From an uncultured bacterium (GTDB taxonomy: Bacteria; Acidobacteriota; Thermoanaerobaculia; Multivoradales; J023), in assembly GCA_937948815.1 (NCBI GenBank), contig CALFAM010000052.1, positions 1,061-65,060 of the forward strand: a DNA stretch of 64,000 nt, read 5' to 3'. This document shows, piece by piece, positions 16,328 to 47,698 of the stretch (position 1 is its first letter; each line of letters begins with the position of its first letter). The notes under the pieces were generated by a model. That model had not been told where the DNA came from. It did not search any database and saw nothing but the letters and a program-made list of their open reading frames with translations. The position numbers and the translations under genes were made by a program.

Positions 16328-18067
16328 TCAGGGAATCGTGGTCGGCAGGTCCGTGGCGAGCTCGGCTCCCGCGCCTGGCAGGGTCCAGGCGGACAGGTCA
16401 CCTGACTCGAAGCCATCGGCGAAGAGCACGTCCTGTACATCGAGGATCTGATCGGCGGCGACGTCTTCGAGCTCCGTTCGCCGGCCGTTGGGCCACTCGA
16501 TGACGACGCGGTCGACCAAGGTCGCAGTGCCGAGTCCGAAGAAAGCCTCGGCGGGCTCTTGTCCAAAGGCGCTGATGCCGGCGGTGATCAGACGCATGTG
16601 CGATACGCCGCCAACTTCGATGCGGATGATGGCGCCGATCGCGCGGTAGTTGGCGCCGGCCATCCGCGGCCGTACGACCAGGTAGTGATTGCCCGTCGTC
16701 GTCTCGTTCTCGATCAGACGCATCCTGTGCGGCTGAATTCCGCTGCCGTTACAGCTCTGAACGAGATCGAGATCGCCGTCGCGATCATAGTCGAGCGCAT
16801 TGAGTGAGCTTCCCCAGTAGGTATCGTCGAGGCCCGCCGACGCAGAAGCGTCACTGAACGTGACGGGCTCTCCGCCTTCGTTGCGGTAGAAGACTGACGC
16901 ATCATCGTGGGCTAGGCCGCTGAACCACCCGTTGGTCGCCGCCAGGTCGAGATCACCGTCGTTGTCGGCGTCGAAGAACGTGCATCCCCATCCCCAGCCG
17001 CCCTGCGCCACGCCAGCCTCGAAAGACACCCGCGTGAACTGCAAACCTCCAGCCGTCGAATCGTTGCGGAACAGAATGTTGTTGCGGGTCGACGTGGTGA
17101 TGTTCGTCACGTAGATGTCGAGATCACCGTCATTGTCGTAGTCACCGAGAGATTGCCCCATATCGTTCCAGGCGTTGTCGACCCCGGCCGTAGCAGCAAC
17201 GTCGACGAAGGTGTTGTCGCCCTGGTTAATCCACAGGTGGTTGGGGGAAAAGTCGGTGACGTAGTGGATGTCGAGCCAGCCGTCGCCATTCCAATCATGG
17301 AAGGTCGGCTGCCAGTGGTAGCCGAAGCTGGGCATCCCGGCACTGGCACTGATGTCGGTGAACGTACCGTCACCATCGTTGAGCAACAGCGTGATCCCGC
17401 CGCTCCAGAGCCCGAAGATGAGATCCAGATAGCCGTCGTTGTTGATGTCCCCGGCGGCGATGCCACCCCGGTGCGCCATGGTGTCGGTGATCGTGTCGTC
17501 CGGAATGTCCGCTGCCACCGTGACATCGACGAACTGAGCGTCCGAAGCTTGACGGTAGAGCTTGAGGGTCGTGGTGTCCGGGCAGTCGGCGTCCGCTTCC
17601 CAGCAGTCCGAAGCCGTGAAGAGATCGAGGCGGTGATCGCCGTCAAAGTCGAACCAGATCGCGGTCCGGCTGCGGCCGGTCGACGCGAGGCCCGCTGCGA
17701 CACCGATTTCATCGAACGTGCCGTCACCGCGGTTGCGATACAGCTGGTTGGCAACGCCGCCGGAATTGGGCACGAAGAGATCGATGTCGCCGTCGTCGTC
17801 GAAGTCGACCGCGAGCACGCTGCCGCTCTTGCCATGCTCCATCTGAGAGGGCTGGATGCCTGCCAGGTCACTGACTTCGAGGAAATCGATATCGCCCGCC
17901 CAAGCGTTCGTGGCCAGCCCCCAACCCAGGAGCACAGCAGCGAGCTGCACGAGCCGACGCGGGAACGCCCGACACCCCGCGAGATTGCCTGAAGGCAGAG
18001 AGCGTCTGGGTAGGTCGTGTCGAGACCGTTGGAGAGATTCGGGAGTGGCAGGCCGTCCGTGGCGCAT
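16328..18067 (-). CDS. CRTAC1/ASPIC-UnbV family FG-GAP repeat protein (secreted)
   Basis: Repeated DxDxDGDLD FG-GAP calcium-binding loops. C-terminal UnbV/ASPIC-like block IGAIIRIEVGGVSHMRLITAGISAFGQEP...VVIEWPNGRR. Hydrophobic signal-like N-terminus. Confidence 0.75.
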   Translation of the reverse strand: MRHGRPATPESLQRSRHDLPRRSLPSGNLAGCRAFPRRLVQLAAVLLGWGLATNAWAGDIDFLEVSDLAGIQPSQMEHGKSGSVLAVDFDDDGDIDLFVPNSGGVANQLYRNRGDGTFDEIGVAAGLASTGRSRTAIWFDFDGDHRLDLFTASDCWEADADCPDTTTLKLYRQASDAQFVDVTVAADIPDDTITDTMAHRGGIAAGDINNDGYLDLIFGLWSGGITLLLNDGDGTFTDISASAGMPSFGYHWQPTFHDWNGDGWLDIHYVTDFSPNHLWINQGDNTFVDVAATAGVDNAWNDMGQSLGDYDNDGDLDIYVTNITTSTRNNILFRNDSTAGGLQFTRVSFEAGVAQGGWGWGCTFFDADNDGDLDLAATNGWFSGLAHDDASVFYRNEGGEPVTFSDASASAGLDDTYWGSSLNALDYDRDGDLDLVQSCNGSGIQPHRMRLIENETTTGNHYLVVRPRMAGANYRAIGAIIRIEVGGVSHMRLITAGISAFGQEPAEAFFGLGTATLVDRVVIEWPNGRRTELEDVAADQILDVQDVLFADGFESGDLSAWTLPGAGAELATDLPTTIP

Positions 18068-18213: not shown

Positions 18214-20580
18214 CTACAGGATCTCGACGGTCACCGGTCCCTTGATCATCGTCTTGCAGGCGAGGCGGCATTCCCCGGCCTCGAGATCACAGAGGTCTGC
18301 GAGCGTGTCGGTTTCCTCGTCATCGGGGCCTGCCGTCAAATTCTCCAGGCCGGCGAGCACGCGGATCGGATCGCTGCCGCAGATACCCGCGTGGCACTCA
18401 GCATTGACCGCGATGCCATTCGCCTCCGCAACGTCGCAGATGGTCTGCCCAGGGAGCGCCGGGAAGGTCTTGCCCAGGGACGCGAAGGTCACGGATGGGC
18501 CATCTCCGACCGCCGAACTACCTTGAAGCGGCGCAGCACCCACCGGCGCCATGTCTTCCAGGGTACCGGGCTCACCATCGGCCACCACGGGCAGAATGGC
18601 GCTGGTCGAAGCGGGCGACTCGTCGTCGAACACAGCGTCCTCACGCGCACTGTAAACGAAGAGTTGCTGGCCGACCCGGAAGCGATCACCGTGTGCAAGC
18701 TGGACAGCGCCGCGAACCTTCAGGAAGGTACCGTTGACGCTCTTCAGATCCTTGGCCATGGCGATGCCGCCGACGGCCGAGATCGCGAGCTGGCGCCGCG
18801 ACAGCGTACGGTCTCCGGCTTCGAGGGTGACGTCTGGTGACTTGCGTCCCAAGATGATCGAGCGATCCGGCAGCGCGATGCGGCGTACCTCTCTACCTGC
18901 CTGGTCGTAGTGGATCAGGAAGAGACCGTCGTCACCGCTTCCCAGCAGCAGGAACTGTCGCCCCGCACACAGCAGGTCCCCGGGCTCGAGGGCGATCTTG
19001 CGGTGAATCGGCAAGCGCAGGAAGACACCACCCGGCGAGCCATCGTCACGAAGCAGGCAGCCATCGTCCGACAACACCAGCGAGGCATGATGCTCCGCCA
19101 GCAAGGTGTCCTCGGGAAAGGTGATGTCGCAACCACCACGGCCAATGGAGCTCACGGACTGCGCAGCCAGGGGATACTCCTCGCCGACCACGCCACCAGG
19201 GAGCAGCCGCAGCAGGTAGCCAGCCTGCGCCACCGGTTTGCGGCCCGCCGCGAAGCTCTCCTCGGGCAGGCGCTCATCGACCGGCGCTGCCGTGGGTACG
19301 GGGATGAAAGTCGAGTCCGTGGAGGATCCCATCGGCTCGAGATCCTCGGCCTCACCGATCTCGACCGCGATCTCGGTCTTGCCGTCCAACCGCTGCCGAA
19401 TGACTTCCGAGATCAGAACGCCGTCGCGCAGCGCCGCTTTGATATTGCCGCGATGTTTCACTTCGCGGAACGTTGCTGGGTCGGCACCGAAGTCGTCGAC
19501 CTCGAAGTGGCCGGGGCTCAGGAGATCGCCGGCCAGGAAGACATTGGGCTGGCACGTCTCCAGGTAGCGGTTGACCGGAAGACGCTTGCGGCTACGCGCC
19601 CCTCCCGTCACCATCTCGATCCCGACCGAGCTCAGGAGCGTCGTCGGGATGTCCTCGCCAATGCAGGCAATACAGCTCTCTTTCGGGAACTCCAGGTGCG
19701 ACGTCTCCGTGGGCCGACCCGCCATCGTGCGGCGATCGGTGCGGATCGCCAGGTACTCGTTTCGATCTTCCCCGGTGACCACGGCGGCGGGCTCACTGCG
19801 CGGGAAGTAACGAATATTGCCGTTGCCCACGTAGGCTGCGAAGAAGACCTCGGCCAACGCCTTGGAAACCCGCGGCATCTTGTCGCCGCGGTAGCTCCAG
19901 TAGATTGCGGTCGAATCCGACGCGGCAGCCTTGGCGCCCGAAATCGCGATCACCGCCTCGGCGGCGGATGTTCCACCACCGATGACACAGGCAGGGCGGC
20001 CCACATAGTGCTGCGGATCGTCCATGCGAAAGGCGATTCCCTGGGTGTTGCCCGGGACATCGAAACGTCGTGGAACACCACGACCGATCGCGATGACCAC
20101 GTTGCGCGCGAGCAAGGTGACGTCGACGCGCGCCGTGTGATCCCAGCCCCTGACCTCGTAGACGCCGTCGGCTGCGCGCCGTACGAGGCCCGTCAGCTCG
20201 AAGCCGAGGCGGGTCGGCACCGCATGCTGGCGGTAGAGGTCTTTCCAGCTCGCGCACATGTCGTCTTTGTCGATCGGGGCGAAGCGTAGCGACTCGATCA
20301 GCGCGTCGCCTTTCGGGAACTTCATCCGATCCCCGCCGCCGAAGCTGGGCAGGATCAGTTTGTCCTTCGAATAGTCGCGAATTCGCTTCATCAGGTCGTC
20401 GTACTCGACGACCAATACCGACATCCCGAGCTCACGGGCCCGAAACGCAACGGCTGTCCCGGCTGGACCTCCGCCGGCAACCAGGACGTCCAAGACGCCC
20501 GACGCAGGATCGAGACCGCCTCCCGAACCTGCTTCGCTGCCATCACCGTGATTCATAAGACCCTCCGGGCATTGACTCAT
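18214..20580 (-). CDS. Fusion protein: TrxR-like FAD/NAD(P)H oxidoreductase + two FHA domains + ferredoxin-like Cys-rich C-terminal domain
   Basis: GGGPAG and GGGTSAAE dinucleotide folds plus FLAGD. Two FHA signatures (IGRGGCDITF...HASL...GSPGGVFL and LGRKSPDVTL...SRRQ...SVNGTFL). C-terminus CHAGICGS...CDLEAGECRLAC. Start uncertain (ATG 20580 or 20556; track ORF 20667). Confidence 0.7.
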   Translation of the reverse strand: MSQCPEGLMNHGDGSEAGSGGGLDPASGVLDVLVAGGGPAGTAVAFRARELGMSVLVVEYDDLMKRIRDYSKDKLILPSFGGGDRMKFPKGDALIESLRFAPIDKDDMCASWKDLYRQHAVPTRLGFELTGLVRRAADGVYEVRGWDHTARVDVTLLARNVVIAIGRGVPRRFDVPGNTQGIAFRMDDPQHYVGRPACVIGGGTSAAEAVIAISGAKAAASDSTAIYWSYRGDKMPRVSKALAEVFFAAYVGNGNIRYFPRSEPAAVVTGEDRNEYLAIRTDRRTMAGRPTETSHLEFPKESCIACIGEDIPTTLLSSVGIEMVTGGARSRKRLPVNRYLETCQPNVFLAGDLLSPGHFEVDDFGADPATFREVKHRGNIKAALRDGVLISEVIRQRLDGKTEIAVEIGEAEDLEPMGSSTDSTFIPVPTAAPVDERLPEESFAAGRKPVAQAGYLLRLLPGGVVGEEYPLAAQSVSSIGRGGCDITFPEDTLLAEHHASLVLSDDGCLLRDDGSPGGVFLRLPIHRKIALEPGDLLCAGRQFLLLGSGDDGLFLIHYDQAGREVRRIALPDRSIILGRKSPDVTLEAGDRTLSRRQLAISAVGGIAMAKDLKSVNGTFLKVRGAVQLAHGDRFRVGQQLFVYSAREDAVFDDESPASTSAILPVVADGEPGTLEDMAPVGAAPLQGSSAVGDGPSVTFASLGKTFPALPGQTICDVAEANGIAVNAECHAGICGSDPIRVLAGLENLTAGPDDEETDTLADLCDLEAGECRLACKTMIKGPVTVEIL

Positions 20581-21565
20581 TGCCAGCCGAGTCGGCGCGC
20601 AGCACGCGGGCCGCGAGCGGTCCGAAAGACAGCACGTCGCCAGGCTCGATCTCGACCTCACCTGCAATCGGCTTGCCGGCGAGGAATGTGTGGTTGTTGC
20701 TCCCCTGGTCGCGCAGGGTGATCGTCGCTCCGACCTTCATGACCGCATGCCGCCGAGAAATGTGATCACTGGCGAGCCGGATCGCGGCAGTCGCCGTGCG
20801 GCCGATTTGATTGCTGCCGTAGACGAGCGGGAATCGTTCCGGCCCGGTCTCGAAGTCGACCTCCAGAACGAAGACCGTCGGCGAGCCCGGAATGGGCGGC
20901 CTGCGCGCGGCCGGGCCGCGATCGGCCGGGCCGCGATCGGCCGCGCTGAGATCAGCCGAGCTATCCACACCGTGCGCGGCGGCTTCGGGCGCTTCGGGCG
21001 CCAGCGACGCCGCGGGCCGAATGCCGCTGGGCACCGCCAGCGGCAGCTCGTGGAATTGGGTTCGTTCGACCGCTCCAGCCGAGTCGGCTGCCCCGGCTTC
21101 GCCGCCCTCCGGGGTATCCATGCGTTCGATCAGTGCCTGCGGCACGGCGAAAGGCTCGTGCGCCTGCGTCACCGCGATCGGTTCGGTGATCGGCGTGCCA
21201 TCGGCCCCGCCGGGGCGGCTGCTCGTCGGTACCGGCGCTGACCCGTGTCGTTCCCGGGTGCGCAGGAGATCCTGAAAAACGAACTCGTGGCGTCCGGCGA
21301 AGGTAATGACGTGTAGGTGATCGAGACGTTCACGCCCGACGACCGGTACGCCATCGAGCGCGGTGCCATTGGTGCTTCCGAGATCTTCGAGCAGGAATCC
21401 GCCGGTTGCCGAGTCGAAGGCAATTCGCGCGTGATCCTTCGAGATCAGCCCATCGTCGATCACCACGGCGTGGCCACGGTCTCGCCCGACCGTCGCCTCG
21501 TCGTCAACCTCGACCGAGACGCCCGCGAGCGCACCGAGTGGGCTGAACAAGCGTGCGCGCGGCAT
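20543..21565 (-). CDS. Double FHA-domain protein
   Basis: N-terminal FHA (VGRDRGHAVVI...SKDHARI...GSTNGTALDG) and C-terminal FHA (IGRTATAAIRL...SRRHAVM...GSNNHTFL), separated by an Ala/Pro-rich linker. Confidence 0.75.
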   Translation of the reverse strand: MPRARLFSPLGALAGVSVEVDDEATVGRDRGHAVVIDDGLISKDHARIAFDSATGGFLLEDLGSTNGTALDGVPVVGRERLDHLHVITFAGRHEFVFQDLLRTRERHGSAPVPTSSRPGGADGTPITEPIAVTQAHEPFAVPQALIERMDTPEGGEAGAADSAGAVERTQFHELPLAVPSGIRPAASLAPEAPEAAAHGVDSSADLSAADRGPADRGPAARRPPIPGSPTVFVLEVDFETGPERFPLVYGSNQIGRTATAAIRLASDHISRRHAVMKVGATITLRDQGSNNHTFLAGKPIAGEVEIEPGDVLSFGPLAARVLRADSAGNESMPGGSYESR

Positions 21566-21566
21566 C

Positions 21567-23156
21567 TCAGCCCGCTCCCGCGCTGGTGTACAGCAGCATC
21601 TGATTGCTCCGATCCTTGTCCGGGTGGAAGACGTGACAGGTCACACAATCGTTCACGGCCCGTCGGTCGCTGTGACAGTCCTGGCACACTTCGAGCTTCG
21701 GAAGATTCTGGATACTCGCCTGGTCCTCGGCCGGGTCGATCTCGGCCCCTTCCGCGATCGCCTGCTCGATCGGGATCTCGTTGTGGCAGTCGAGGCAGCG
21801 CGCCTGGAGAATGTGTGCGTGGTGATCGAACTCCGCATGGCGAAGGGTTTGTTGGTCGTCCTGCACGCGAACAATGGTCGCATTCTCGACTTCGTGGCAC
21901 TGCTGGCAAGGGCCGGTGAGCGAATCGACCAGAGCGTGAATCGCTTCGGCCTGCTCGCCGGTGACGTGCGCATCCGAGGAGTCGAGGGCGAGTAGGAAGT
22001 CCGTCTCATCGAGGTCGACGAGCGGATCTTCGATCCGGCGGCCCAAGCTTTCGATCATGCTCGTGATGCGCTCCAGCTCCTCCTGAATCGCCGGCTCGGG
22101 GCGACCTCGCAAACCCACGGCCTGCTCCTCGAGGGTGGCCAGGGCCTCGCGATAAAGGTTCTTGACCTCGTGCTCTGGAACGTTGGGAGTAGCTGTCAGC
22201 AAGTCGGCGAGCCCGGCGTCGGGCAGCAGGCGGGTGCGCAGGCGTCGAAGGTTGTGCAACACCCACGGATCGAGGTGATGGAGTGGAGACTTGCGAATCC
22301 GTGAGCCCACGGTTTGCAGCTCGTTGGGGTTGGCGAACCATGACCACCGGGTGCCTACGCCACCCTGCTCGCGAATCGCTTCGAGCGACAGCACCCCGAG
22401 GCTGCCGGAATCGGAGCCTTGTATCGGCAGCCGCGGCGTCGCAGTGCCGATGGTCAGGTGGCAGGCGTCACAGTGGCGATCGAAGCTGATCGGCTCGAAG
22501 TTGCGCCCATCCGGCTGCGCATTGTGGCAGTAGAGACAGGCTTGCTCGACATCATCCAACGCCTCCTGATCCATCAGCTCGGCAATGTGCTCGATGTGCG
22601 CGAAGGTGATGCCCGAACGATCGGGTTCGTCGTTGGCGGCGAATGAAAACTGAGGGTGGTCGTCGTCGAATGAGTCGAAGTGGCATGCCTGACACTGCCC
22701 ATTGCTGACCGTGGTGAGGTCGGCATCGCGCCCGCCATGCTCTCCATGACACGTTGCGCACGGAACCTCGTGGGCGGACGTCTCGACATTCTCGAAATCG
22801 CCCGACCGGTAGAGGTAGTGGGCCGTGAAGGAGTAGGTGCCGATCTCGTCACCCAACTTCTCGTGGCAGGTCTCGCAACGCTCGTTCTGGACGGTGTCGA
22901 AGGCGTCGTGACAGGCCCCGCAGTTGTTCTCGAGCAAGGCATGGCCCGAAGAAAGCTCACCCGTCGAGATCAAGTGCGCGTCGCGATAGAAAAAATCGAC
23001 CAGCAGCCAGCCAGCGGCGAGCATGGCCAAGGCAGCTCCGATCCAGAGAGCACGCCGCCGTCCGGGCGGCAGCACATACGACCGCGCCACGGGCAGACGG
23101 GCCTGCCCGTAGGTCCCTTTCATCTTCGCCTTGGACTTGATTGGCTGTTGCGACAT
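21567..23156 (-). CDS. Membrane-anchored decahaem c-type cytochrome
   Basis: One N-terminal TM helix (LWIGAALAMLAAGWLLVDFF) and ten CxxCH motifs counted in the translation. Confidence 0.8.
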   Translation of the reverse strand: MSQQPIKSKAKMKGTYGQARLPVARSYVLPPGRRRALWIGAALAMLAAGWLLVDFFYRDAHLISTGELSSGHALLENNCGACHDAFDTVQNERCETCHEKLGDEIGTYSFTAHYLYRSGDFENVETSAHEVPCATCHGEHGGRDADLTTVSNGQCQACHFDSFDDDHPQFSFAANDEPDRSGITFAHIEHIAELMDQEALDDVEQACLYCHNAQPDGRNFEPISFDRHCDACHLTIGTATPRLPIQGSDSGSLGVLSLEAIREQGGVGTRWSWFANPNELQTVGSRIRKSPLHHLDPWVLHNLRRLRTRLLPDAGLADLLTATPNVPEHEVKNLYREALATLEEQAVGLRGRPEPAIQEELERITSMIESLGRRIEDPLVDLDETDFLLALDSSDAHVTGEQAEAIHALVDSLTGPCQQCHEVENATIVRVQDDQQTLRHAEFDHHAHILQARCLDCHNEIPIEQAIAEGAEIDPAEDQASIQNLPKLEVCQDCHSDRRAVNDCVTCHVFHPDKDRSNQMLLYTSAGAG

Positions 23157-23226
23157 CAGTTTCTCGGTTCCCTTCTCGTGCGTCGTCTCAAAGCGGTCGG
23201 CAGCTCGTCCTGATCCTTCTGCTCGA

Positions 23227-24081
23227 TCAGTAGTACAGAACCGTGAAGACGTGAACCCCGACCAAGACCAACAGGACCAGGGACAAGGGGATATGGAGCA
23301 TCAACCACCAGCGCAGCGGCCACTGCAAGGTGTGATGGGCATCGAGCTCGAGCTTGGTCCGGTAGAGCGTCTCGAGTTGCTCGAGGCGCCCGCGTTCGTC
23401 TTCGGGCAAGAAACCGCGCAGATAGTCGAACGCCCGCAACCGGGAACGGATTCCGCCGGTGACGTCGACGAAGTAGATCCAGCGTCGGTCCGGACCTCCC
23501 AAGGCCGGCGCCACCTCACGCGCGTAGAGCGCGCGGATGGCATCGCCGCAGCTCGCGCTCAGCGCCTCTGCGCGCTCACGCAGATCATCGATCAGAGATG
23601 GGATCCGCTCGTAGAGCGCCTCGGTCGACAAACCCGAGGCCAAGACCCGCGGAATCCAGCGCTGCAGGAGCAAGCCCAGCGCGCCGCTGATCACCGTCCA
23701 CACGCTCAGACCCCAGAGCCACCAGGTGAGGGCGCCTGACGGCAGGCGAAAGCTGCTGTGCATCACCATCAGCAGCAGGAAGAGTGTGCCGCCATAGAGA
23801 TGCAGGCGCAGCCAGCCACGCGCGCTACCGACCCGCAGGCGCGAGGCCAGAGCCGGAAAGCGCCGGCGCATGCCAAAGAGCGCAACAGCCACCATGACCA
23901 CCGCACAGGCAATGCCGTAGGCAATTCCCCATGCGTTGCCAGAAGACAGCTCGCTGAGCGTGATTTGCACGGCGAGCGCGATGACACATAGCGCGACCAA
24001 CGAAAAGAAGACGATCTGTCCAGCCGGCCAACGCCGGCGTCCGGCCGGCGGGTTGCTGCGTTGACTCGTTGCTTTCGGCAT
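23227..24081 (-). CDS. Five-TM membrane protein with two H-x13-H helices (candidate dihaem b-type subunit)
   Basis: Helix HLYGGTLFLLLMVMH and helix HIPLSLVLLVLVGVH each carry His pairs with identical 13-residue spacing. A soluble insert of about 100 aa lies between TM4 and TM5. Confidence 0.55.
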   Translation of the reverse strand: MPKATSQRSNPPAGRRRWPAGQIVFFSLVALCVIALAVQITLSELSSGNAWGIAYGIACAVVMVAVALFGMRRRFPALASRLRVGSARGWLRLHLYGGTLFLLLMVMHSSFRLPSGALTWWLWGLSVWTVISGALGLLLQRWIPRVLASGLSTEALYERIPSLIDDLRERAEALSASCGDAIRALYAREVAPALGGPDRRWIYFVDVTGGIRSRLRAFDYLRGFLPEDERGRLEQLETLYRTKLELDAHHTLQWPLRWWLMLHIPLSLVLLVLVGVHVFTVLYY

Positions 24082-24085
24082 GGTG

Positions 24086-25768
24086 CTAGCGATCCCGTCG
24101 GCGCAGGGCCTGAATCTCGTCCACCGAACCGACCCGATGTAAGCAGCCCTGTGGGCAATTGCTCACACAAGCCGGCTCGTGGCCAGTGGAATGGCAAAGA
24201 TCACATTTGCTGGCCACGAGGCGATCATCGCCTCGGAGGCCGGCCGGGACCGTGTCGTCCGGCCAGATCTCGCCGGTCTCGTGCATGACGATCGCATCGT
24301 AGGGGCAGTTGCTGGCACAGGTTCCGCAGCCGATACAGATGTCGTCGTCGATGTCGATCAGCTCGGCCAGTCCACCACGATGGATCGCGCCCGTGGGACA
24401 ACCGACGAGGCACACAGGATCCTGGCAGTGGTAGCACGACTTGGCGACCAGCAGGTTGTCCAGCTTGCTGCCCTCACGCACGAAGCGCGGGCGCCCGCCG
24501 TGGGTGGCAGCACAGGCACGCACGCAGTCGTCACAGCGGGTGCAGGCTTCGAGATCGATCACCATCATGCTGTTGCCCTGAACCAAGCCGCGGTCGAGGG
24601 CCACCTGCGTGAACTCCGCGTGATCGATGTCGCGTTTGCCGTGTCCCGCTTCGCGAATCCGCGCCAGGGCGCTCTTCCAGAGCTGTTCCTGTAGCCCGGG
24701 CTCGCTTTGCAGGAGTGACCGCACCAGTGATGCCGGTATCTTGACCAGCTCCGAGTACTCGACCGACGTCGCGGTCACCTCCCAGGAATCGACGCCATCG
24801 ATCAGCAGCTCGACCTCGCCGATGGTCATGCCCTTGGAGAGATACGAAACGGTGACGTCACTCTCGCCGAAGCGCTGGGCCAGCTTGACGAAGCCCGAGC
24901 GCACCAAGAAGATCGCGCCCGCTTCCGTTCCTTCCGCGACCACCAGCTCGTCGGGACCACATGACACGAGCTCGACGGAGCGTTCGAGCTCTTTGATCGA
25001 TGCCGGCGTGAGGCCGGCGAAGAGCGGCGTACGCTTGAGCTGGCCCGCCAGGGCACGCTCGCGGTACCGCTCGTCGAGATGTTTCTTGAGACCCGCCGAG
25101 CGGCGCTTCATCAGGCGCAAGGCCGGCACACGAATCTGAATCAGCTGGCACCGTGTCGCAGTGCGGGCCGTGACCGATTGGGGCCAGCCACTCATCGCAC
25201 CGATCTCCCCGAAGATCTCCCCCGGGCCGAGGCGCGTCGTGCCGCTCGAGGGGAGGTCGGTATCCATGGTGGCCAAGAAGGCGATGGTGTGATCGTCCGA
25301 CGAGCGGTTGAGGCTCTGGATGCGGCTGGGCGAAGGCGAGCCGGCGGCCATCGTCGGCAGAAGCTGGGTGCGCTCGACGCCGTCGGGATTCGAGAGCTCG
25401 ATCATCGAGGTCCGCTCGCGCTCGAAGATCGGGGCGGTATCGTTGCCGCCCTGGAGCGCGCCGAGATCAATCTCGACTTCACCTCGGACGACCACGAAGG
25501 CCACATTCAGATACGAACCCTGCTCGAACAGCGCGGCATTCTCCCGCCAGGCGACCACGGAGACATCCGGGCTGATGCGTTCGAGAAAGGTGTCCGGATA
25601 GTCGCTGAAGATGTCGTACCGGCGCAGCTCGGCCGCGGTCAGCCGGTCGGAGATCGCCTCGATTCCGGTGGTATCGCCGTAGGACGACCAGCGATCCCGG
25701 TACATCTCCATGCGCCGGATCGTCGTCTTACTGACGCTGCCGCCTTGTTCGTTCATCGCATTGCTCAT
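24086..25768 (-). CDS. Two cyclic-nucleotide-binding domains fused to a four-cluster 4Fe-4S (DmsB/NrfC-like) domain; no signal peptide
   Basis: CNB signatures GEIFGEIGAM and GMTIGEVELL. Cys groups CTRCDDCVRAC, CYHCQDPVCLVGCP, CIGCGTCASNCP and CDLCHSTGHEPACVSNCP. Start overlaps the upstream stop (25765-25768). Confidence 0.8.
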   Translation of the reverse strand: MSNAMNEQGGSVSKTTIRRMEMYRDRWSSYGDTTGIEAISDRLTAAELRRYDIFSDYPDTFLERISPDVSVVAWRENAALFEQGSYLNVAFVVVRGEVEIDLGALQGGNDTAPIFERERTSMIELSNPDGVERTQLLPTMAAGSPSPSRIQSLNRSSDDHTIAFLATMDTDLPSSGTTRLGPGEIFGEIGAMSGWPQSVTARTATRCQLIQIRVPALRLMKRRSAGLKKHLDERYRERALAGQLKRTPLFAGLTPASIKELERSVELVSCGPDELVVAEGTEAGAIFLVRSGFVKLAQRFGESDVTVSYLSKGMTIGEVELLIDGVDSWEVTATSVEYSELVKIPASLVRSLLQSEPGLQEQLWKSALARIREAGHGKRDIDHAEFTQVALDRGLVQGNSMMVIDLEACTRCDDCVRACAATHGGRPRFVREGSKLDNLLVAKSCYHCQDPVCLVGCPTGAIHRGGLAELIDIDDDICIGCGTCASNCPYDAIVMHETGEIWPDDTVPAGLRGDDRLVASKCDLCHSTGHEPACVSNCPQGCLHRVGSVDEIQALRRRDR

Positions 25769-28137
25769 CTGTTGCCTCCCGGCGTCTTGGCAGCGTCGTC
25801 TACGGCCTCGTACAGCCGTCTCAGCCGCTCCTCGAGCAGGAGGAGGAGCGACTCGATCGAAGTCTCTTCGTCGACTTCCGGAAAGGGTGGCAAGGCCAGA
25901 TCGTCGACGACAGCACCACCCTGGCCGGCGGCCCCGAACGGTGCTTGCCCCACCTGCGCGCCCGCGCCGCCCGCGTCACTCCCGCGAGAACGCCCACGGG
26001 AGCGCGCATTGGGCCGCGCGCGTGGCGTTTGCGGCCGCGCGATCCGCCCTGTGGCGCTGAGCGGCTCGGTCAGTGGCCCGGTCGACGCCGTGGTCGCTGC
26101 GCCATCGCCGCCGATGACACGCCGGCTGGCGAGACGAGCACGCTGAACCGCCGGAACCGGCCCCCGGCTGCCGAGTGCCGCGCCAAAGGCCGTCGTGATC
26201 TGGCTCGCGGTCGTCGAGTCCTGCTCCCAGTGGTTGATCTCGACCATGCCCTGGGCGTAGTCGAAGTCCTTGCCCGAGGGATGGCCCGCGGAGATCAGGC
26301 GCGTCTCGGTGATGTAGTGGCAGCCGGTACAGACCTCGGCACGGACGCTGAGGTCACGCAGCGCCCGCATGCCCTGCCCGAGGGCTTGCCGGTAGCCGGG
26401 CCGGTCGTCACCGAGATCCGCGTCGCCTTCCTGGTGCGACTCGAGATAGTCGGCCGCGGGTCCATGGCAGCTCTCACAGGCCACGCCGTCGGCGACTTCT
26501 TGGCGCTTCTCGGCGGTCACGGCCGTGCCATGACAGTCCATGCAGATGTGGTCGCCACGGGCCATTTGTGAGCGCTTGAGGCCGTAGAGCGTCGCGATCT
26601 TGACGTTCTCCGGATCCTGCTCGAAGAAGGGATCCGCGGACTGATAGTGCGCGTCATCGAACCACCAGGCGGTCTGGGTCTGGTGACGATGACAGCCCGT
26701 GCAAGTCTCGGGGCCGATGGTGGCGTGAGACGACGGCGGGCGCACGGCGCGCTTGAACGTTCCGGTCGCCGGCACGCCCGGATCCACTTCGACTCGCGGG
26801 CCGGCCGACGTGCTGCTCGCGAGGGCCCCGCCCTCGGCAGTCGTGTCCGCGTCGGCCTCTGCTGCGCCGGGCGGGAGGTTCCCGTCTGCAACACCAGGAG
26901 TTGTAGCGCCTGGCGCGAGGGTGCCATCGGCCAGCTGCTCTTCAGGATCGTCTTCGTCCTCGTCCGCCAACAGCACCTCTTCCGTGCCGAGAATGACGCC
27001 GTCGAGGCTCGCCAACTGCTGTCCGTCATGGCTGTCGAGGAAGGTGCGCGCCGAGACCCCGATCGCTTCCGCGGCCGTCAGCATGGCCTGGCGCTGGTTC
27101 GGCCGCACGTCGAGCGCACGCACGGTCGCCACCATGGACGCCAGCTCGGGAAGATCCAGGCGCTGTCCCAAGGCACGGACATCACGCAGGGTCTTGCGAA
27201 CCCGCCGCGCCGCGGCCTTGGCGAAGACACCCTTCTCTGTGGCCTCGGCCATCGCGCGCAAGCTGTGCTCGAGGGCGAGGGCGCGGCCGAGCACGTAGAC
27301 CACCCGTTTGTGGGTCATCGGTCGCTCGGGGTTCTCGCCCCCACCATCGCCGAGAAACGACTCGAGAAAATTGTGACGAATCTCGCCACTGGTCCAGGCG
27401 ACGAGCTCGAAGTCACCGCTGCCGGTCCCGTGGCCGCCGACATTGACCAGGTCCTCATCGGGCACCATGTGGCACCGGAAGCAGCTCGACATCAGCGCGT
27501 AGAAGTTGTCCGAGGACCGCCGCATCCCCGCCGCGATGCTTTCCTCGATGCGCTGTCGGCGATGCTCGGGCGGCTCGTTGGTGTGATCGAGCCCTTTGCC
27601 ACCGTAGTCGTTGTGCACGTCGATCCAGTCACGGGCGGCACCGTGGCACGACTCGCACGACACGCCAGAGATGGCACGGAGCTCGTCGCGCTGGACTGTC
27701 GCGGTGTAGTGACAACTCAGGCACAGACTGTCCCGCTTGAGCAGCCGGAAGCCCATTCGTTCGGCGATTTCCTCAGCCGCCGCCTTGCGGTGCAGGGTGC
27801 GAAATCCGGTCTGATGGGTCGTCTTTCGCCACACCTCGAAGGCCGACGCATGGCACTCGCCGCACGACTCCGAATTGACGATCTTCTCCGGATCGGGAGC
27901 CCCTTCACGCAGCAGACGAAGCGCCAGATCAGACGATGCCGGATCGTCTTGCGCCAGGGCCATGCTGCTTGCGAGGGCCAACCACAAGAACGGACACAAG
28001 CACAGCCACCAGGACCGCCACGACACCGGCCAGGCCCTACGTGCCCTGCTGATCGGGTACTCACCCACGGTGGTATTCCCACCGTGGGGCTCGTGGCATT
28101 GCGGCATTATTCGCGCCCCAAGATATCGTCTTGGCAA
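25765..28137 (-). CDS. Secreted octahaem c-type cytochrome (two 4-haem halves) with low-complexity C-terminal tail
   Basis: Hydrophobic signal (WWLCLCPFLWLALASSMALA). Eight CxxCH motifs arranged 4 + 4 and separated by an Ala/Gly/Pro-rich linker. Start uncertain (28137, 28107 or GTG 28068). Confidence 0.8.
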   Translation of the reverse strand: MPRRYLGARIMPQCHEPHGGNTTVGEYPISRARRAWPVSWRSWWLCLCPFLWLALASSMALAQDDPASSDLALRLLREGAPDPEKIVNSESCGECHASAFEVWRKTTHQTGFRTLHRKAAAEEIAERMGFRLLKRDSLCLSCHYTATVQRDELRAISGVSCESCHGAARDWIDVHNDYGGKGLDHTNEPPEHRRQRIEESIAAGMRRSSDNFYALMSSCFRCHMVPDEDLVNVGGHGTGSGDFELVAWTSGEIRHNFLESFLGDGGGENPERPMTHKRVVYVLGRALALEHSLRAMAEATEKGVFAKAAARRVRKTLRDVRALGQRLDLPELASMVATVRALDVRPNQRQAMLTAAEAIGVSARTFLDSHDGQQLASLDGVILGTEEVLLADEDEDDPEEQLADGTLAPGATTPGVADGNLPPGAAEADADTTAEGGALASSTSAGPRVEVDPGVPATGTFKRAVRPPSSHATIGPETCTGCHRHQTQTAWWFDDAHYQSADPFFEQDPENVKIATLYGLKRSQMARGDHICMDCHGTAVTAEKRQEVADGVACESCHGPAADYLESHQEGDADLGDDRPGYRQALGQGMRALRDLSVRAEVCTGCHYITETRLISAGHPSGKDFDYAQGMVEINHWEQDSTTASQITTAFGAALGSRGPVPAVQRARLASRRVIGGDGAATTASTGPLTEPLSATGRIARPQTPRARPNARSRGRSRGSDAGGAGAQVGQAPFGAAGQGGAVVDDLALPPFPEVDEETSIESLLLLLEERLRRLYEAVDDAAKTPGGNR

Positions 28138-28181
28138 GAACCAGACGGCACGAGAACGTGGTCAACACTCGAAAATGGTCA

Positions 28182-29786
28182 CTAGAATTTGGTCAGCAAT
28201 TCCAGCCGGCCACCGTAGAGCGTCTCGTCTCCGAGACCGGCCAACCCGCTCAGGTGACCCACGAAGCCATCGACCACCAGGACGAGCCGACGGCCGATGG
28301 CCGTCTGGAATCGGGCGGTGGCCGCAAACGCGTCCGCGACGTCGTTCTCCAGACCAAAGCGCGCACCAAACTCGACGATCACCTGCTTACGGGTGTGATC
28401 GAAGAACATCTGATAGCCGACCGCACCACCGACCACATCACGCGCCGTGCTCGAGAGCGCCGCGCCATAGCTGCCGAGACCGACCGCAGCGAAGTTGATT
28501 CCCGCCCGTCCGAGAGGCCCACCGGTGGCCGGGCCACGCGCGGCCGACGAAAAGGTGTCGACGGCCAAGAAGTTGTTCACGTAGAATAGGTTATGCGTGT
28601 GAACCGGCGTCCAAGAAAGCTCGCTGAAGAGCAGCGCGCCGTCCGTACTGAATGCGGTTTCGTCATCGAGAGCGAAGGATCCGAGCACGCGGAACGAGGC
28701 GTTCATCTTGCCGATCCGCTGCACCGCGCTGACGCCGAAGGCTGCCAGGTCCCCGACCAGCGGATTGTCTGACTGTACGTAGACCAGATCGGCGTCGATG
28801 GTCGAACGCCGAACGTCGGTCGACGTCAGCAGCGCAAAGAGCTGCCCGCTGGTGTCCTCGGGGTTGGTGCCGCGCAGGGAGCCTTCGGCGTCCGACAGAT
28901 CGATGCCACCGCGGTGGACGTTGTCCCACGCCAGGAAAAGCGTGGCCCGAAAGTTGGACGTATTCTTCGGCAGAAGCGTGTTGCGGGTCAGGCCGATGCC
29001 ATCGAGGGTGTCTTGGATCAACAGCCCTTCCTGGAAAAACATCGGCTGCCTGCCGATCGAGAAGCCCACATCCAAGGAACCATGGTCTTCGAGATCGAGA
29101 TTGGGAAAGATCTCCCCGAACTCACCCTCGAAGAACAGCACCTCGACATCGATGTCGAACTCATCCCGAAACTCGCCGTCGAGCGCGGGGTCAGGCGATT
29201 CGAATACGTAGCCGCTGAAGCGTCCGCTGCGATCGAAGTTGCGGAAGCCAACGACCAGGCGTTCGGTGCCACTCAAAAAGAGGTTGAGGAAAAGGTCGAG
29301 CCGGTTCGCCCACTCGGTGGTGCGGTTCTCGCTGCCACCAGGGGTGAAGGTCTGGAGACCCGTGCGCAGGTTGCCGAAGGCGAGCAACGACGGCTGCCAG
29401 ACGGCCCCCGTGGGCAGCTTGTAGCCAGGATGAAGCGTTCCCGTGCCGAGAAACGGCTCGCCAAGCTCGAGAATCGGCTTCGGCCGCTTCGGGAAGCCCT
29501 CGAGTTGAAGGGGCAGGGCGACATCGCTCAGGCGACTACCGTGGCCACCGCCATGACCATCGTGCCCGTCTCCGGCGCCGTGGCCATCTCCGTGCTCGTC
29601 GTGATCTTCCCCGGCGTGGTCGTGGCCGTCGTCCGACTCGTGAACGGCATCTTCAGGGTCGGCCGCTTTCGCGGACGGCGCCGCCTTCGCGCTTGGCGAA
29701 GAAGCGACCGCAGTCACCGGCATGGCAGCCAACAGCAACGCACCCAGGAGGGTGCGGCTCAAGAGCATCGCGCGCTTGCTGTCCAT
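28182..29786 (-). CDS. Putative outer-membrane beta-barrel protein with N-terminal His/Asp-rich tract
   Basis: ATG at 29786 lies 4 nt after the upstream stop. Signal peptide MDSKRAMLLSRTLLGALLLAAMPVTAVA. His/Asp tract at residues 49-82. Gly/aromatic-rich body ending ...GRLELLTKF, with the terminal Phe typical of OMPs. Confidence 0.55.
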   Translation of the reverse strand: MDSKRAMLLSRTLLGALLLAAMPVTAVASSPSAKAAPSAKAADPEDAVHESDDGHDHAGEDHDEHGDGHGAGDGHDGHGGGHGSRLSDVALPLQLEGFPKRPKPILELGEPFLGTGTLHPGYKLPTGAVWQPSLLAFGNLRTGLQTFTPGGSENRTTEWANRLDLFLNLFLSGTERLVVGFRNFDRSGRFSGYVFESPDPALDGEFRDEFDIDVEVLFFEGEFGEIFPNLDLEDHGSLDVGFSIGRQPMFFQEGLLIQDTLDGIGLTRNTLLPKNTSNFRATLFLAWDNVHRGGIDLSDAEGSLRGTNPEDTSGQLFALLTSTDVRRSTIDADLVYVQSDNPLVGDLAAFGVSAVQRIGKMNASFRVLGSFALDDETAFSTDGALLFSELSWTPVHTHNLFYVNNFLAVDTFSSAARGPATGGPLGRAGINFAAVGLGSYGAALSSTARDVVGGAVGYQMFFDHTRKQVIVEFGARFGLENDVADAFAATARFQTAIGRRLVLVVDGFVGHLSGLAGLGDETLYGGRLELLTKF

Positions 29787-29790
29787 GGCG

Positions 29791-31659
29791 CTACTCGGAG
29801 GCGCCGGCAATGGCGGTCGCGGGGTGGGCGGAACCCTCGGCACCACTGTGGAGATCGATCTCGAGATCTCGTTCCCACAGCACCAGATGCCCTGCGACCA
29901 CCCGATCGGCAATCTCGCGGGCGCTCAGGCCATAGTCGAACCCGACCCCGGCGATCTCGTGTACCAGGTTGACCGGCACCATGCCGGCGATCAGCTCGAA
30001 CCGCGCACGGTATGGCCCCGCACCGCTCAGCGCCGATGCCGGAACCCGGTACCGGGCAAGCCGCTTGCCACCGGGTTCGATGTTCTGCTTGTGCTTGCGC
30101 GCGCCTGCCGGTCGCCCGGTCAGAATGGTCGAACGCGTCGAGGGCCGCAGGAAGGGCAGCGGATCTGGTGAGTAGTTCACCGCCAGAACCTGCTCCCGCT
30201 CCCCGCCGCGCACCATGCGCGTGACGAAGCGTGACTGCAAGCTGAAGAGCTGCTTGTCGAGGGGTAGCTCGCCGTTGTGCACATAGAGCGAATGCGTGTC
30301 GCGCAGGTCGCCATTGGGATCGAGATCGCCCGAGACAAAGACGACCTCGTCGTTGCGGTCGGTCACGGTGACCCGTACGAACACCAGGCGTTCCGCGTCG
30401 AAGCCGGTCGGCACGCCGTGTCCGGTGGTGGCATTGCGCACTTCGGCGGCAATCACCATCCCCTTTCGTGCATCGGCCCGAACCACCTCGATCTCGCCGA
30501 ACTGGTAGCCGGCCTGGAGGACCTTCTTGCGCTGGACATCGGCCTTGGCGAGCAGGGCCCGGTTCGCCTCGATGATGTCGCGCGCATCGTAGCGATCATC
30601 GGCCGCGCGCCATTTCTCCGGAAAATCGTACGGCTCGTCGGCCTTGGCCGCCTGATCCTCGAATGTGTCGGTGCCCCATCCCGCTTCCCAATCAAAGGTC
30701 AGCCACTCGCGGATGGTCGCCAGCTCGGATGCCTTGGTGTTGTGCGGGAAGATCCCCGGGTGAATGACCGAGTAGTCGGGGCCGATGAACATGTGGTCCG
30801 TGCGCTTCCGGACTACCGTCGGGCGGCCGCCAACCACTGCGGCGGGGGCTTGGGCGTAGCCGGAGACCACGCCAGGCTCGAGGCCCATGTGGCAGTCCTG
30901 GCACGACGTGCCTTCCTTGGCCGCTGGCGTGTTCTTGAACTCGCTGAAGGCCTCTTCCAGCCGGAAGCCGTTGACCAGGTTGACGTCGTGGCAAGTCGCA
31001 CAGAGACCGGAAGTCGTGATCTGGAAGAACGGTCGCGCTTCCGTGTGGATCGCTCGCCCGGCCTTGCCTCGCTCGGTGTTGACCCGGTACTCGCCGCTTT
31101 CGAGCACGCGCTCGAGCTCTTCGTTGCCCGCTGGGCCGTAGACCGGCTCGAAAAGATCACCCTCGACGATGGCCAGGCGCCCGCTCAGCTTGCCATAGCT
31201 CTTGTTGAGCCGGTGACAAACGATGCAGGTCACGCCTTCGCGCGAGGTCGGATGGCGATCCATGTTGCTCATGAACTCTGGCTCGCCAAGGTTCATGCCG
31301 ACCGGCGTATGGCAACGGATGCAGAAGTCTCCGTTCGTCCCATTGGTCAGCTTGAGCACGGTTCCATGCATGGCATTGAAGACCGGGCTCATCTGCGCGT
31401 AGGCATGCGGCGACACGGACCAGGCTTCGAAGTGGTCCGGATGACACGTCGCGCAGGTATTGGCCGACGGGAACCGATTCTCCAGGAACAGCGCTTCGTG
31501 CTCTTGATCGGCGGACAGAGCCTTTGCCGCGGTCTCCTCGGACGGCGGGTCCTCCGTCGCGAAAACGAGTGCAGCGGTGGCCAGCCATGCACCTGCCACG
31601 GCAAGCGTCCCGAAGATGGCCGGGCGCACCATTTCGGTCGATATCCACAGAAATCTCAT
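29791..31659 (-). CDS. Secreted pentahaem c-type cytochrome with large non-haem C-terminal domain
   Basis: ATG at 31659 preceded by GAGGAGG (complement of 31668-31674). Signal-like AIFGTLAVAGAWLATAALVFA. Five CxxCH motifs in the first 270 aa. Confidence 0.8.
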   Translation of the reverse strand: MRFLWISTEMVRPAIFGTLAVAGAWLATAALVFATEDPPSEETAAKALSADQEHEALFLENRFPSANTCATCHPDHFEAWSVSPHAYAQMSPVFNAMHGTVLKLTNGTNGDFCIRCHTPVGMNLGEPEFMSNMDRHPTSREGVTCIVCHRLNKSYGKLSGRLAIVEGDLFEPVYGPAGNEELERVLESGEYRVNTERGKAGRAIHTEARPFFQITTSGLCATCHDVNLVNGFRLEEAFSEFKNTPAAKEGTSCQDCHMGLEPGVVSGYAQAPAAVVGGRPTVVRKRTDHMFIGPDYSVIHPGIFPHNTKASELATIREWLTFDWEAGWGTDTFEDQAAKADEPYDFPEKWRAADDRYDARDIIEANRALLAKADVQRKKVLQAGYQFGEIEVVRADARKGMVIAAEVRNATTGHGVPTGFDAERLVFVRVTVTDRNDEVVFVSGDLDPNGDLRDTHSLYVHNGELPLDKQLFSLQSRFVTRMVRGGEREQVLAVNYSPDPLPFLRPSTRSTILTGRPAGARKHKQNIEPGGKRLARYRVPASALSGAGPYRARFELIAGMVPVNLVHEIAGVGFDYGLSAREIADRVVAGHLVLWERDLEIDLHSGAEGSAHPATAIAGASE

Positions 31660-31935
31660 TGCAACAAACCTCCTCAAAGGCTACATACGCCTCTCAAGTC
31701 CCCAGTACGCAATGAAACCAAGCGATGATCGACCGAACCGAAATGACAATGAAAGCAGTCCTGCCAGGGAGTTTACTACGACCTATAGCGTTGTGACAAA
31801 AAGTCATCTGCCTTCTGGGCTGGAGGCACGAATGAACGGTACGATGCAGGCCATGAACGACAGGGTCGCGCTCTGACACGTTTCCTCGCCATCATTGGCG
31901 TTCTGACGATCTCGCTCTCCGCGATCTTCGTTCGC

Positions 31936-47140: not shown

Positions 47141-47698
47141 TCAGACGGTACGGCGAAGGCTTTGCTTCGCCGTCCGCCAGGCGCGTTGTACCGAGCTGAT
47201 GGAAAGGCCGAGGGCGTCGGCGGTCTCGGGCTCGGTCATGCCCGCGAAGTAGCGACATTCGACCACCCGCACGAGTCGTGGGTCCTTCTCAGCGAGCCTC
47301 TCGAGCGCACCATGGACGGCGAGGATCTCGTCCAGCTTGCGTCCCTCCGCAACCGTGGCTTCGTCGAGACTGACTTGAACGCGATCACCACCGCGCTTGG
47401 CCCGACGCCGGGCCCGTGCATGATCGACCGCGACTTGGCGCATCGCGGTGGCCGCCACGGCAAGAAAGTGGCCCCGGCTCCGCAAGTTCGCCCCCGCGGC
47501 TCCAATCAGCTTGAGATAGGCCTCATGAACGACCGCGGTGGTGTCGAGGGTTGCGCCCGATGGACTTCCCCGGCGCTGGCCGCGGGCGACGCGCCGTAGC
47601 TCGGGGTAGACCGATGCGACGGCCTGGTCGAAAGCATGGGGGTCGCCATCAGCGTGCGCCGCGAGAAGCGCGGTGATATCTCGATCGTCAGGCATCAT
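47141..47698 (-). CDS. ECF sigma factor (Sigma70_ECF type)
   Basis: DITALLAAHADGD...YPELRRVARGQ opening and C-terminal region 4 HTH (TEPETADALGLSISSVQRAWRTAK). Overlaps the upstream kinase stop by 11 nt. Confidence 0.8.
   Translation of the reverse strand: MMPDDRDITALLAAHADGDPHAFDQAVASVYPELRRVARGQRRGSPSGATLDTTAVVHEAYLKLIGAAGANLRSRGHFLAVAATAMRQVAVDHARARRRAKRGGDRVQVSLDEATVAEGRKLDEILAVHGALERLAEKDPRLVRVVECRYFAGMTEPETADALGLSISSVQRAWRTAKQSLRRTV

Follow-up and report, generated by a model that had tools for sequence, protein, structure and literature searches.

A cluster of eight genes (A to H) lies on the minus strand of a 64,000-nucleotide stretch of DNA from an uncultured bacterium of the Thermoanaerobaculia (Acidobacteriota; contig CALFAM010000052.1, positions 1,061 to 65,060), which is referred to below as the window. 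From its sequence the cluster is identified as a ptd (penta/tetra/deca-haem) operon in the form found in Acidobacteriota. The encoded proteins are read here as a chain that carries electrons from NAD(P)H to cytochromes of the cell envelope, independently of the quinone pool and switched through phosphothreonine (pThr) and FHA domains; we hold this reading to be probable, with a confidence only a little better than even.

The eight open reading frames were confirmed at 18214-31659, where the preliminary description had placed them, as were its count of CxxCH motifs (five in A, eight in C and ten in F, 23 in sum) and its junction extremes (a 38-nt overlap between G and H and a 70-nt gap between E and F). 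D carries a single incidental CxxCH within an Fe-S motif. The haem counts exceed chance, because the motifs are kept across homologues: five were found in 22/22 homologues of A, and all ten of F are conserved (mostly at ≥90%) over 68 homologues. Profile searches with Pfam and NCBIfam recovered all domains previously claimed for D, G and H, together with c554/c7/c3-type haem domains in A, C and F; no curated family of either collection matched B or E. Start codons are uncertain by a few codons for C (TTG at 28137) and A (31659 or 31677), and H may start at 20580 or, as in the database protein P0241, at 20556. The genes and their parts, all on the minus strand, are as follows:

29791..31659, minus: A (PtdA), exported pentahaem cytochrome with five CxxCH and a Sec-type signal; haem domain ~30760-31482, conserved C-terminal domain of ~300 residues ~29860-30759
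28182..29786, minus: B (PtdB), outer-membrane beta-barrel (AlphaFold model, Foldseek); barrel 28188-29390, conserved N-terminal segment 29391-29537, His/Asp tract 29538-29642
25765..28137, minus: C (PtdD), exported octahaem cytochrome with eight CxxCH, matched twice by Cytochrome_C554; two c554-like tetrahaem modules, 27433-27876 and 26278-26730, with a long low-complexity linker between them
24086..25768, minus: D (PtdE), cytoplasmic protein with cyclic-nucleotide-binding (CNB) and Fe-S domains (Pfam, NCBIfam); CNB 25064-25636 and 24614-25036, four-cluster [4Fe-4S] ferredoxin 24119-24571
23227..24081, minus: E (PtdF), membrane protein with five transmembrane helices (model pLDDT, the predicted local distance difference test score, 86); helix 3 23758-23802, helix 5 23251-23295, cytoplasmic helical domain (115 residues) 23317-23661
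21567..23156, minus: F (PtdG), decahaem cytochrome with ten CxxCH (Cytochrome_C7, E 4.6e-13); N-terminal membrane anchor 22989-23051 and a conserved short cytoplasmic tail
20543..21565, minus: G, FHA-linker-FHA protein (FHA matched twice, E 2e-27, Pfam); FHA 21362-21490 and 20687-20806, linker 20846-21268, T133 motif 21155-21172, T169 motif 21047-21064
18214..20580, minus: H (PtdC), cytoplasmic flavoprotein (Pfam); Pyr_redox_2 with two dinucleotide motifs 19396-20499, FHA1 18946-19218, FHA2 18646-18903, ferredoxin-like Fer2 18217-18498

Identity and conservation of the operon

Whether this combination of genes had been described before had been left as a question, and it has: Elbon, Stewart and Glass (bioRxiv 10.1101/2023.11.21.568154) named a putative operon ptdABCDEFG, but without the FHA layer, and FHA is mentioned nowhere in the paper or its supplements. 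The components listed there are a pentahaem protein with a beta-sandwich, a porin, an FAD/NAD(P) oxidoreductase, a tetrahaem protein, an Fe-S protein with a cyclic nucleoside monophosphate (cNMP) domain, a 'ferric reductase-like' membrane protein and a decahaem protein, and the operon is likened to porin-cytochrome complexes (bioRxiv 10.1101/2023.11.21.568154). All seven are present in the window, in the order of the Acidobacteriota entries of Table S7 of that paper. A corresponds to PtdA by its five haems, its additional C-terminal domain and its c552 homology; B, modelled as a barrel and encoded beside A, to the porin PtdB; C, with two tetrahaem modules, to the periplasmic tetrahaem PtdD; D, E and F, in this order, to PtdE, PtdF and PtdG; and H to PtdC.

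The closest comparison is provided by Sulfidibacter corallicola (CP071793), for which Table S7 lists QTD51412-51419 (bioRxiv 10.1101/2023.11.21.568154). The order of these accessions is that of the genes in the window, with one accession, QTD51418, skipped. All eight genes recur in the Sulfidibacter locus (L018), where the cytochromes have 5, 8 and 10 haems and H has 787 residues; an FHA-FHA protein occupies the position of the skipped accession. H and the PtdC of S. corallicola (QTD51419.1) share 54% identity over 95% of the length of H; D, E and F are 56%, 52% and 48% identical to their orthologues, which stand in the same order. The cluster is assigned to the ptd family because the Sulfidibacter order, the eight genes and the PtdC identity agree.

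The operon seen here departs from the published description in several respects. An eighth gene, G, unnamed there, belongs to the unit; the 'tetrahaem' PtdD has eight haems both here and in Sulfidibacter, through tandem duplication; D has 16 Cys residues, enough for four clusters, whereas the paper states two; and the FHA domains of PtdC, the linkage to kinase and PP2C genes, an alternative outer-membrane module and fusions of D with E are unmentioned. Four features appear not to have been described before: the conserved FHA/kinase/PP2C layer, the modularity of the outer-membrane end, the fusions of D with E, and the invariant four-His site of E, whose fold has no solved relative. A search of the full-text literature found no follow-up work on ptd, other matches to the name being phosphite dehydrogenase genes or patient decision aids.

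Conservation of the gene order was assessed by scanning one genome per species with an alignment of E, which yielded 155 relatives, and by comparing the best 80 loci by tblastn with the eight proteins of the window. The proposal that the eight genes form one unit was upheld: the order A-B-C-D-E-F-G-H recurs in many genomes of Acidobacteriota, Rhodothermales, Gemmatimonadales and others, and orthologues were not found scattered in related genomes. Homologues of E on Mb-scale contigs likewise stand in the order A-B-C-D-E-F-(FHA)-(H). D-E-F-G-H is retained in nearly all 80 loci, from >10 phyla, wherever the flanking sequence suffices; the block occurs in Acidobacteriota, KSB1, Bacteroidota (Rhodothermales, Cytophagia, Chitinophagales), Ignavibacteria/Chlorobi-like bacteria, Gemmatimonadales, Myxococcota, Zixibacteria, Eisenbacteria and one 'Chromatiales' metagenome-assembled genome. 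A+B are present in a subset of the loci only, and co-occur in every locus having either, truncated contigs aside. Judged from these loci, the conserved core is C-D-E-F-G-H, and A+B are exchangeable. The nearest relatives of the cluster proteins are found in Thermoanaerobaculia ("Ca. Multivoradales") and other Acidobacteriota; ptd has also been listed in Proteobacteria, Nitrospinota and Planctomycetota (bioRxiv 10.1101/2023.11.21.568154). A search of a plasmid collection with A returned distant multihaem cytochromes only, and no ptd on plasmids.

Individual variations in layout were also observed. About 4 kb are inserted between E and F in L006 (10834-14759). F stands between C and D in L019 and L049, giving the order C-F-D-E-G-H-PP2C-kinase, which is preceded by A-B in L019. 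L002 (12425-13594; 12.2-Mb genome OZ375331.1) and L072 hold A-F and a G-like gene with no H within 10 kb; their flavoprotein may be encoded elsewhere or replaced.

Membrane subunit, proposed cytoplasmic entry and putative phosphothreonine layer

The two H-x13-H spacings noticed in E were verified as H94/H108 in transmembrane helix 3 and H263/H277 in helix 5. In alignments reaching down to 21% identity, the sole invariant residues of the protein are G56, H94, H108, G133, G136, W259, H263 and H277; the family comprises 3,084 clusters at 50% identity. By the positive-inside rule both helices are predicted to run from the cytoplasm to the periplasm, so two His pairs would be placed on parallel helices, as in ferric reductases. 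This arrangement is consistent with two transmembrane b-haems, an inner (cytoplasmic) one held by H94/H263 and an outer (periplasmic) one held by H108/H277, and their geometry would be that of cytochrome b and of the NADPH oxidases (NOX). Searches of the PDB by sequence, profile and fold returned no match for E (best Foldseek hit E 0.4, template-modelling score <0.4). The label 'ferric reductase-like' was therefore not adopted other than as a functional analogy, since neither Ferric_reduct nor any PDB sequence or fold matched.

D was confirmed to carry neither a Sec nor a Tat signal, in agreement with the earlier statement that it lacks an export signal, and is placed in the cytoplasm because no Tat signal is present. 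Its Fe-S domain is DmsB/HybA/DsrO-like (NCBIfam), with 16 Cys in four groups (CxxCxxCxxxC, CxxCx4CxxxCP, CxxCxxCxxxCP and CxxCx7CxxxCP), all of which are conserved in 64 homologues and follow the DmsB/NarH/HybA pattern. Fusion of D to the N-terminal end of E was seen in at least three distinct clusters at 50% identity (P0361, P0398 and P0474), and a further fusion is encoded in locus L008 (8300-10786); these proteins of 771-856 residues comprise cNMP_binding, Fer4 and the E domain. Such fusions argue for direct contact of D with E on the cytoplasmic face.

In H, the motifs GGGPAGTA and GGGTSAAEA and the Cys residues of Fer2 are conserved, and FHA is present in all 120 best homologues. FHA2 retains G-R, S-R-R and N-G, so that the pThr contacts are largely kept. 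A C-I-A-C motif (residues 303-306, 19663-19674) was also noted, conserved at ≥90% in 51 homologues; it may not be a redox disulfide, the site being a hydrophobic strand in many Pyr_redox_2 proteins.

Both FHA domains of G retain the pThr contacts S-x-x-H and N-G over 54 homologues, and the C-terminal one also G-R at ≥90%. The linker between them is unconserved save for two or three [KR]-T-x-[IFLV]-[DE] motifs (T133 in 76%, T169 in 93%, position 207 in 87%), of which the form in the family is K-T-x-[IF]-[DE]. Sites of the type pT-x-x-D/E suit recognition by FHA domains. G also matches the NCBIfam model of OdhI (E 2.6e-9). In the homologue of G from L022 (Ca. Eiseniibacteriota), the linker contains seven tandem '...AGDETVIDTGGALPGGL...' units, each with T-x-[IV]-D.

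A kinase and/or PP2C gene stands beside H in 22/42 loci with enough downstream sequence. PP2C and a Pkinase-PEGA receptor kinase are encoded directly 3' of H, co-oriented with it, in 13 loci, and in two Rhodothermales loci a kinase lies just upstream of A. The suspected link of the FHA proteins to Ser/Thr phosphorylation is thus strengthened, both by the PP2C/Hanks-type kinase genes beside H in about half of the loci and by the conserved Thr motifs of G. On this comparative basis, the switch of the cluster appears to be protein phosphorylation and not a cyclic nucleotide.

Periplasmic cytochromes, outer-membrane end and surroundings

The two halves of C align with 26% identity (E 1e-13) with their four haem motifs in register, and by this alignment C is a tandem duplication of a c554-like tetrahaem module. 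Homologues of C carry 3, 7 or 8 haems, the Sulfidibacter orthologue 8.

Among the eight proteins, conservation is highest in A, which is 63-77% identical across phyla. Like C, it has a Sec-type signal without a lipobox Cys. Its residues 65-185 match cytochrome c552 of T. tepidum (5ze8, E 1e-10), a protein that has been assigned to one group with ExtKL of Geobacter and a cytochrome nanowire from an archaeon (PMC11976967). A is not a member of the ExtKL/PHC equivalog NF040886 (26.6 bits against a cut-off of 250); judged by these scores, it is related to ExtKL only via the shared c552-like haem domain.

For B, the C-terminus ...LTKF was confirmed, and the fold was modelled as a beta-barrel, in which 18-19 strands extend over residues 133-533 with a pLDDT of about 80-90 across most of the barrel. 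The best Foldseek matches are 18-strand barrels, namely MOMP (5ldv, 7e-13), AlgE and OprD/Occ; the 50 best structural matches listed are porin-type (MOMP, AlgE, OprD/Occ, chitoporin, OmpM1), and MtrB is not among them. No Pfam family matched, searches of PDB sequences found nothing, and none of the at least 989 homologues is functionally named. Residues 84-132 (29391-29537; SRLSD..PL..P.RP.P..ELG.PFLGTG..LPTGAVWQP) are among the most conserved parts of B and are modelled as disordered; they could form a plug or a cytochrome-docking peptide. The His/Asp tract (29538-29642), likewise modelled as disordered, is poorly conserved in the family. From the standard barrel-radius formula, the Cα diameter of the modelled barrel would be ~33 Å and its free lumen at most ~23 Å. 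The expectation that B is a barrel holding a cytochrome, wide enough to enclose it, did not hold up in this strict form: with ~18 strands, the model resembles OprD, AlgE and MOMP.

Membership of the MtrCAB/Pcc systems was rejected for three reasons: the size of the barrel, the fact that none of the cytochromes is a lipoprotein, and family scores of which none convincingly passes its threshold. The DmsE family reached 29.8 bits against a cut-off of 192. The MtrC domain scored 27.3 on A against a cut-off of 30, and 31 on C, which merely touches the cut-off with no matched stretch. No sequence membership of the MtrB, MtrA/DmsE or MtrC/OmcA families and no surface lipoprotein cytochrome were found in the cluster.

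In loci of Bacteroidota, Ignavibacteria and KSB1 type, A+B are replaced by an alternative module, which comprises a protein with three HbpS-like (haem-degrading-like) domains, a decahaem cytochrome of ~1,220 residues with LVIVD repeats and a barrel of ~575 residues ending in F-T-Y, with a 3-haem C alongside. It is seen in L041 (479-7409), L030, L043, L047, L050, L053, L068 and L069; in L009, L013, L025, L029, L031 and L042 it is found downstream of the core, not upstream. Homology of its barrel to B was rejected (hhalign probability 0.1%), and the two are unrelated. Since two unrelated modules of barrel plus multihaem cytochrome are thus combined with one core in different phyla, the arrangement suggests a role for the chain at the outer membrane or outside it.

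The genes flanking the cluster in the window are unrelated to it (FG-GAP/ASPIC on one side and EamA on the other, with CarboxypepD_reg and DnaE proteins also in the vicinity). Large proteins of secreted type are encoded on both sides (13844-16237, plus strand; 16328-18067, minus strand; 32844-36038, plus strand), with CarboxypepD_reg repeats, FG-GAP/ASPIC-UnbV and FG-GAP + He_PIG; these proteins are not conserved beside ptd in other genomes. At a distance of 27-37 kb, a Pkinase-TPR protein, a GAF-SpoIIE (PP2C-type) phosphatase and a GAF sigma-54 activator are encoded at 47688-50582, 52554-54167 and 55474-56979 (all minus strand); they are candidate regulators, with nothing linking them to the cluster. 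A T2SSE (type II/IV secretion ATPase) gene is located ~29 kb from the cluster (60307-61731, minus strand). A consensus scan of the region gave 5 promoter-like sites, where 2.0 ± 1.4 were expected, and terminator-like sites not above chance; the site upstream of A is weak evidence for a promoter:

31770..31799, minus: promoter-like site upstream of A (consensus scan, 9/12 matches)

Proposed electron path, alternatives and related systems

In the proposed path, H (FAD, an NAD(P)H site and a ferredoxin-like [2Fe-2S] cluster) would hand electrons to D (4 × [4Fe-4S]), which would be docked on E; the two b-haems of E would relay them to the membrane-anchored decahaem protein F, and F would pass them on to C, with its two tethered tetrahaem modules, and to the pentahaem protein A, which would work with the barrel B. 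Through their FHA domains, G and H would be controlled by a Hanks-type kinase and PP2C in the manner of a GarA/OdhI-like switch. A may reduce a soluble substrate, or the electrons may end on an extracellular metal. Gene content, the conserved order, domain identities, invariant residues, the D-E fusions, the kinase/PP2C linkage, the barrel size and the orthology to ptd are read directly from the sequences, alignments and models, whereas the bound cofactors, the sequence and outward direction of transfer, the independence of quinones, the phosphorylation of G and the final acceptor are inferred. The preliminary description had proposed a complete path from the cytoplasm to the outer membrane. 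Of this, the part from the cytoplasm to the periplasm is well supported by domain logic, whereas neither crossing of the outer membrane nor a conduit of the MtrCAB/Pcc type is supported. Outward flow is favoured because the membrane potential would help a simple transmembrane haem wire in the outward direction only, because NAD(P)H reduces more strongly than typical multihaem cytochromes, and because no energy-coupling subunit is encoded in the cluster. Tight post-translational control would be sensible, as it is for NOX, since a chain of this kind left running would deplete NAD(P)H and depolarise the cell.

Several points weigh against this reading. The full-text literature holds one description of ptd, the preprint, and no experiment on any member, and the authors of that preprint call the function 'completely unknown' (bioRxiv 10.1101/2023.11.21.568154). 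Haem binding by E is deduced from its His pattern alone because no solved haem protein matches it, and E could also hold a quinone site. The direction of flow follows from thermodynamic reasoning only. As to the switch, the Thr motifs of G in the window are more degenerate than the family consensus, FHA1 of H is without the Ser and Asn contact residues, and no kinase or phosphatase gene adjoins the cluster in this window, the nearest Pkinase being ~27 kb off. At the outer end, B as modelled would be too narrow to sheath an MtrA-like cytochrome.

The last point bears on a rather unlikely alternative, in which A is a periplasmic terminal reductase of a soluble compound (for instance chelated Fe(III) or a reactive species of nitrogen, oxygen, sulfur or selenium) that enters through the channel of B, with no electrons crossing the outer membrane. 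The best structural matches of the ~18-strand B are substrate-specific channels. The conservation of A, with many invariant polar residues in both domains, is typical of enzymes and unusual for surface electron-transfer cytochromes, and A has a Sec signal without a lipobox. PtdA has been predicted to be periplasmic and shares a COG with NrfA, and ptdA/B are highly transcribed in NO-transforming bacteria (bioRxiv 10.1101/2023.11.21.568154). A reductase with a substrate channel is thus favoured by the narrowness of B and by the degree to which A is conserved, which is like that of an enzyme. However, neither CxxCK nor another recognisable catalytic-haem motif is present in A, its haem domain falls into the c552/ExtKL group, which is linked to extracellular electron transfer and nanowire-like packing, and the slot of A+B is taken elsewhere by a 1,200-residue decahaem LVIVD protein and a larger barrel, which resemble a surface module. 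Delivery at the outer membrane or beyond it is favoured by the repeated pairing of the core with barrel/cytochrome modules and by the kinship of A's haem domain.

The remaining two alternatives, which concern the direction of flow and the nature of the switch, are both considered improbable. If electrons were taken up inward, periplasmic or extracellular donors would feed A, C and F, and electrons would cross E to reach D and H, where NAD(P)+ or a different acceptor in the cytoplasm would be reduced, in resemblance to NarI-NarH or to the Hmc/Tmc/Dsr complexes of sulfate reducers. A four-cluster Fe-S protein on a di-haem b subunit is the geometry of NarH-NarI, in which electron flow is inward, and D matches the NarH/DmsB/DsrO family. 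Such electrons would, however, move against the membrane potential and from typical multihaem cytochrome potentials, which would lie above that of NAD(P)+, with no proton pump or electron-bifurcating module encoded in the cluster. On the other side, the bacteria listed with ptd include nitrite oxidisers (Nitrospina, Nitrospirales), whose metabolism requires reducing power (bioRxiv 10.1101/2023.11.21.568154).

Gating of electron entry by cAMP or cGMP at the two CNB domains of D had been part of the original proposal, and it was not borne out by the alignments. D does contain two cNMP_binding (PF00027) stretches (E 1.4e-21), both with the Gly-Glu of the cassette, and CNB domains are retained in all homologues of D and in the D-E fusions. 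The phosphate-binding Arg, however, is replaced in both cassettes: by Gln in domain 1 (phosphate-binding cassette 25160-25213; aligned to protein kinases A and G), where 'PQS' is conserved at ≥90% in 64 homologues, and by Asp in domain 2 (cassette 24767-24823; aligned to Crp of M. tuberculosis). Canonical binding of cAMP or cGMP is therefore doubtful. Many domains of CNB fold that are without this Arg bind other ligands or none, and no cyclase gene was seen in the flanks within the window or in the annotated flanks of the loci.

The quinone-independent, FHA-switched export of electrons thus remains the preferred reading. A more specific version is put forward tentatively: the core C-H may be a hitherto unrecognised bacterial counterpart of NADPH oxidase, a quinone-independent exporter with a new di-haem b fold (E), turned on and off by a dedicated Hanks-type kinase/PP2C pair through G, as a GarA-like double-FHA adaptor, and through the FHA domains fused to the flavoprotein. 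If this version is true, it would be the first case of phosphothreonine-FHA gating in an electron-transport chain, and the chain would be modular, joining with two or more unrelated cytochrome/barrel modules of the outer membrane in >10 phyla. A conserved kinase/phosphatase/FHA layer would constitute an unusual post-translational on/off control of such a chain. Should electrons of NAD(P)H indeed be exported without quinones, this would be a new route of reducing power to envelope or extracellular acceptors, with a bearing on iron, manganese and nitrogen cycling. The operon is widespread, with members in Acidobacteriota, Bacteroidota, Ignavibacteria, KSB1, Gemmatimonadota and Myxococcota, and its A and B genes are transcribed in oxygen-deficient zones of the ocean (bioRxiv 10.1101/2023.11.21.568154). 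Cultured hosts are Sulfidibacter corallicola and also Roseibium aggregatum and Tistlia consotensis (bioRxiv 10.1101/2023.11.21.568154), and the four His residues of E and T133/T169 of G can be targeted.

Four known systems resemble parts of the cluster. In porin-cytochrome conduits (Shewanella MtrCAB, Geobacter Pcc/Ext), multihaem genes likewise stand beside the gene of an outer-membrane barrel; MtrB, however, has 26 strands as against ~18 (OprD/AlgE-like) in B, the cluster is without a lipoprotein cytochrome, and MtrCAB/Pcc are fed by a quinol dehydrogenase (CymA, ImcH, CbcL), whereas ptd would be fed by a cytoplasmic flavoprotein/Fe-S module. With NarH-NarI and Hmc/Tmc/DsrMKJOP the cluster would share the plan of a four-cluster Fe-S protein on a di-haem b subunit, combined with periplasmic multihaem cytochromes. 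E is nevertheless unrelated to NarI, HmcE and DsrM in sequence and fold, D differs by its two domains of CNB fold, the partner is a flavoprotein of NAD(P)H type, and the flow is likely outward.

The principle of NOX/ferric reductases (FRD) and of MsrQ-Fre, in which an NAD(P)H flavoprotein passes electrons to two stacked b-haems on H-x13-H helices for export, would be the same. NOX is controlled by phosphorylation-dependent assembly. E has no structural match to NOX, STEAP or MsrQ, with its five transmembrane helices and a cytoplasmic helical domain of 115 residues, and, unlike in NOX/FRD, an Fe-S protein would be placed between flavin and haems. The proposed switch finds its closest counterpart in GarA/OdhI of Actinobacteria, where a small FHA protein likewise carries Thr motifs in a disordered segment and a Hanks-type kinase and PP2C are encoded nearby. 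G differs in having two FHA domains, with the Thr motifs between them rather than N-terminal, and its predicted target is a redox complex in place of 2-oxoglutarate dehydrogenase.

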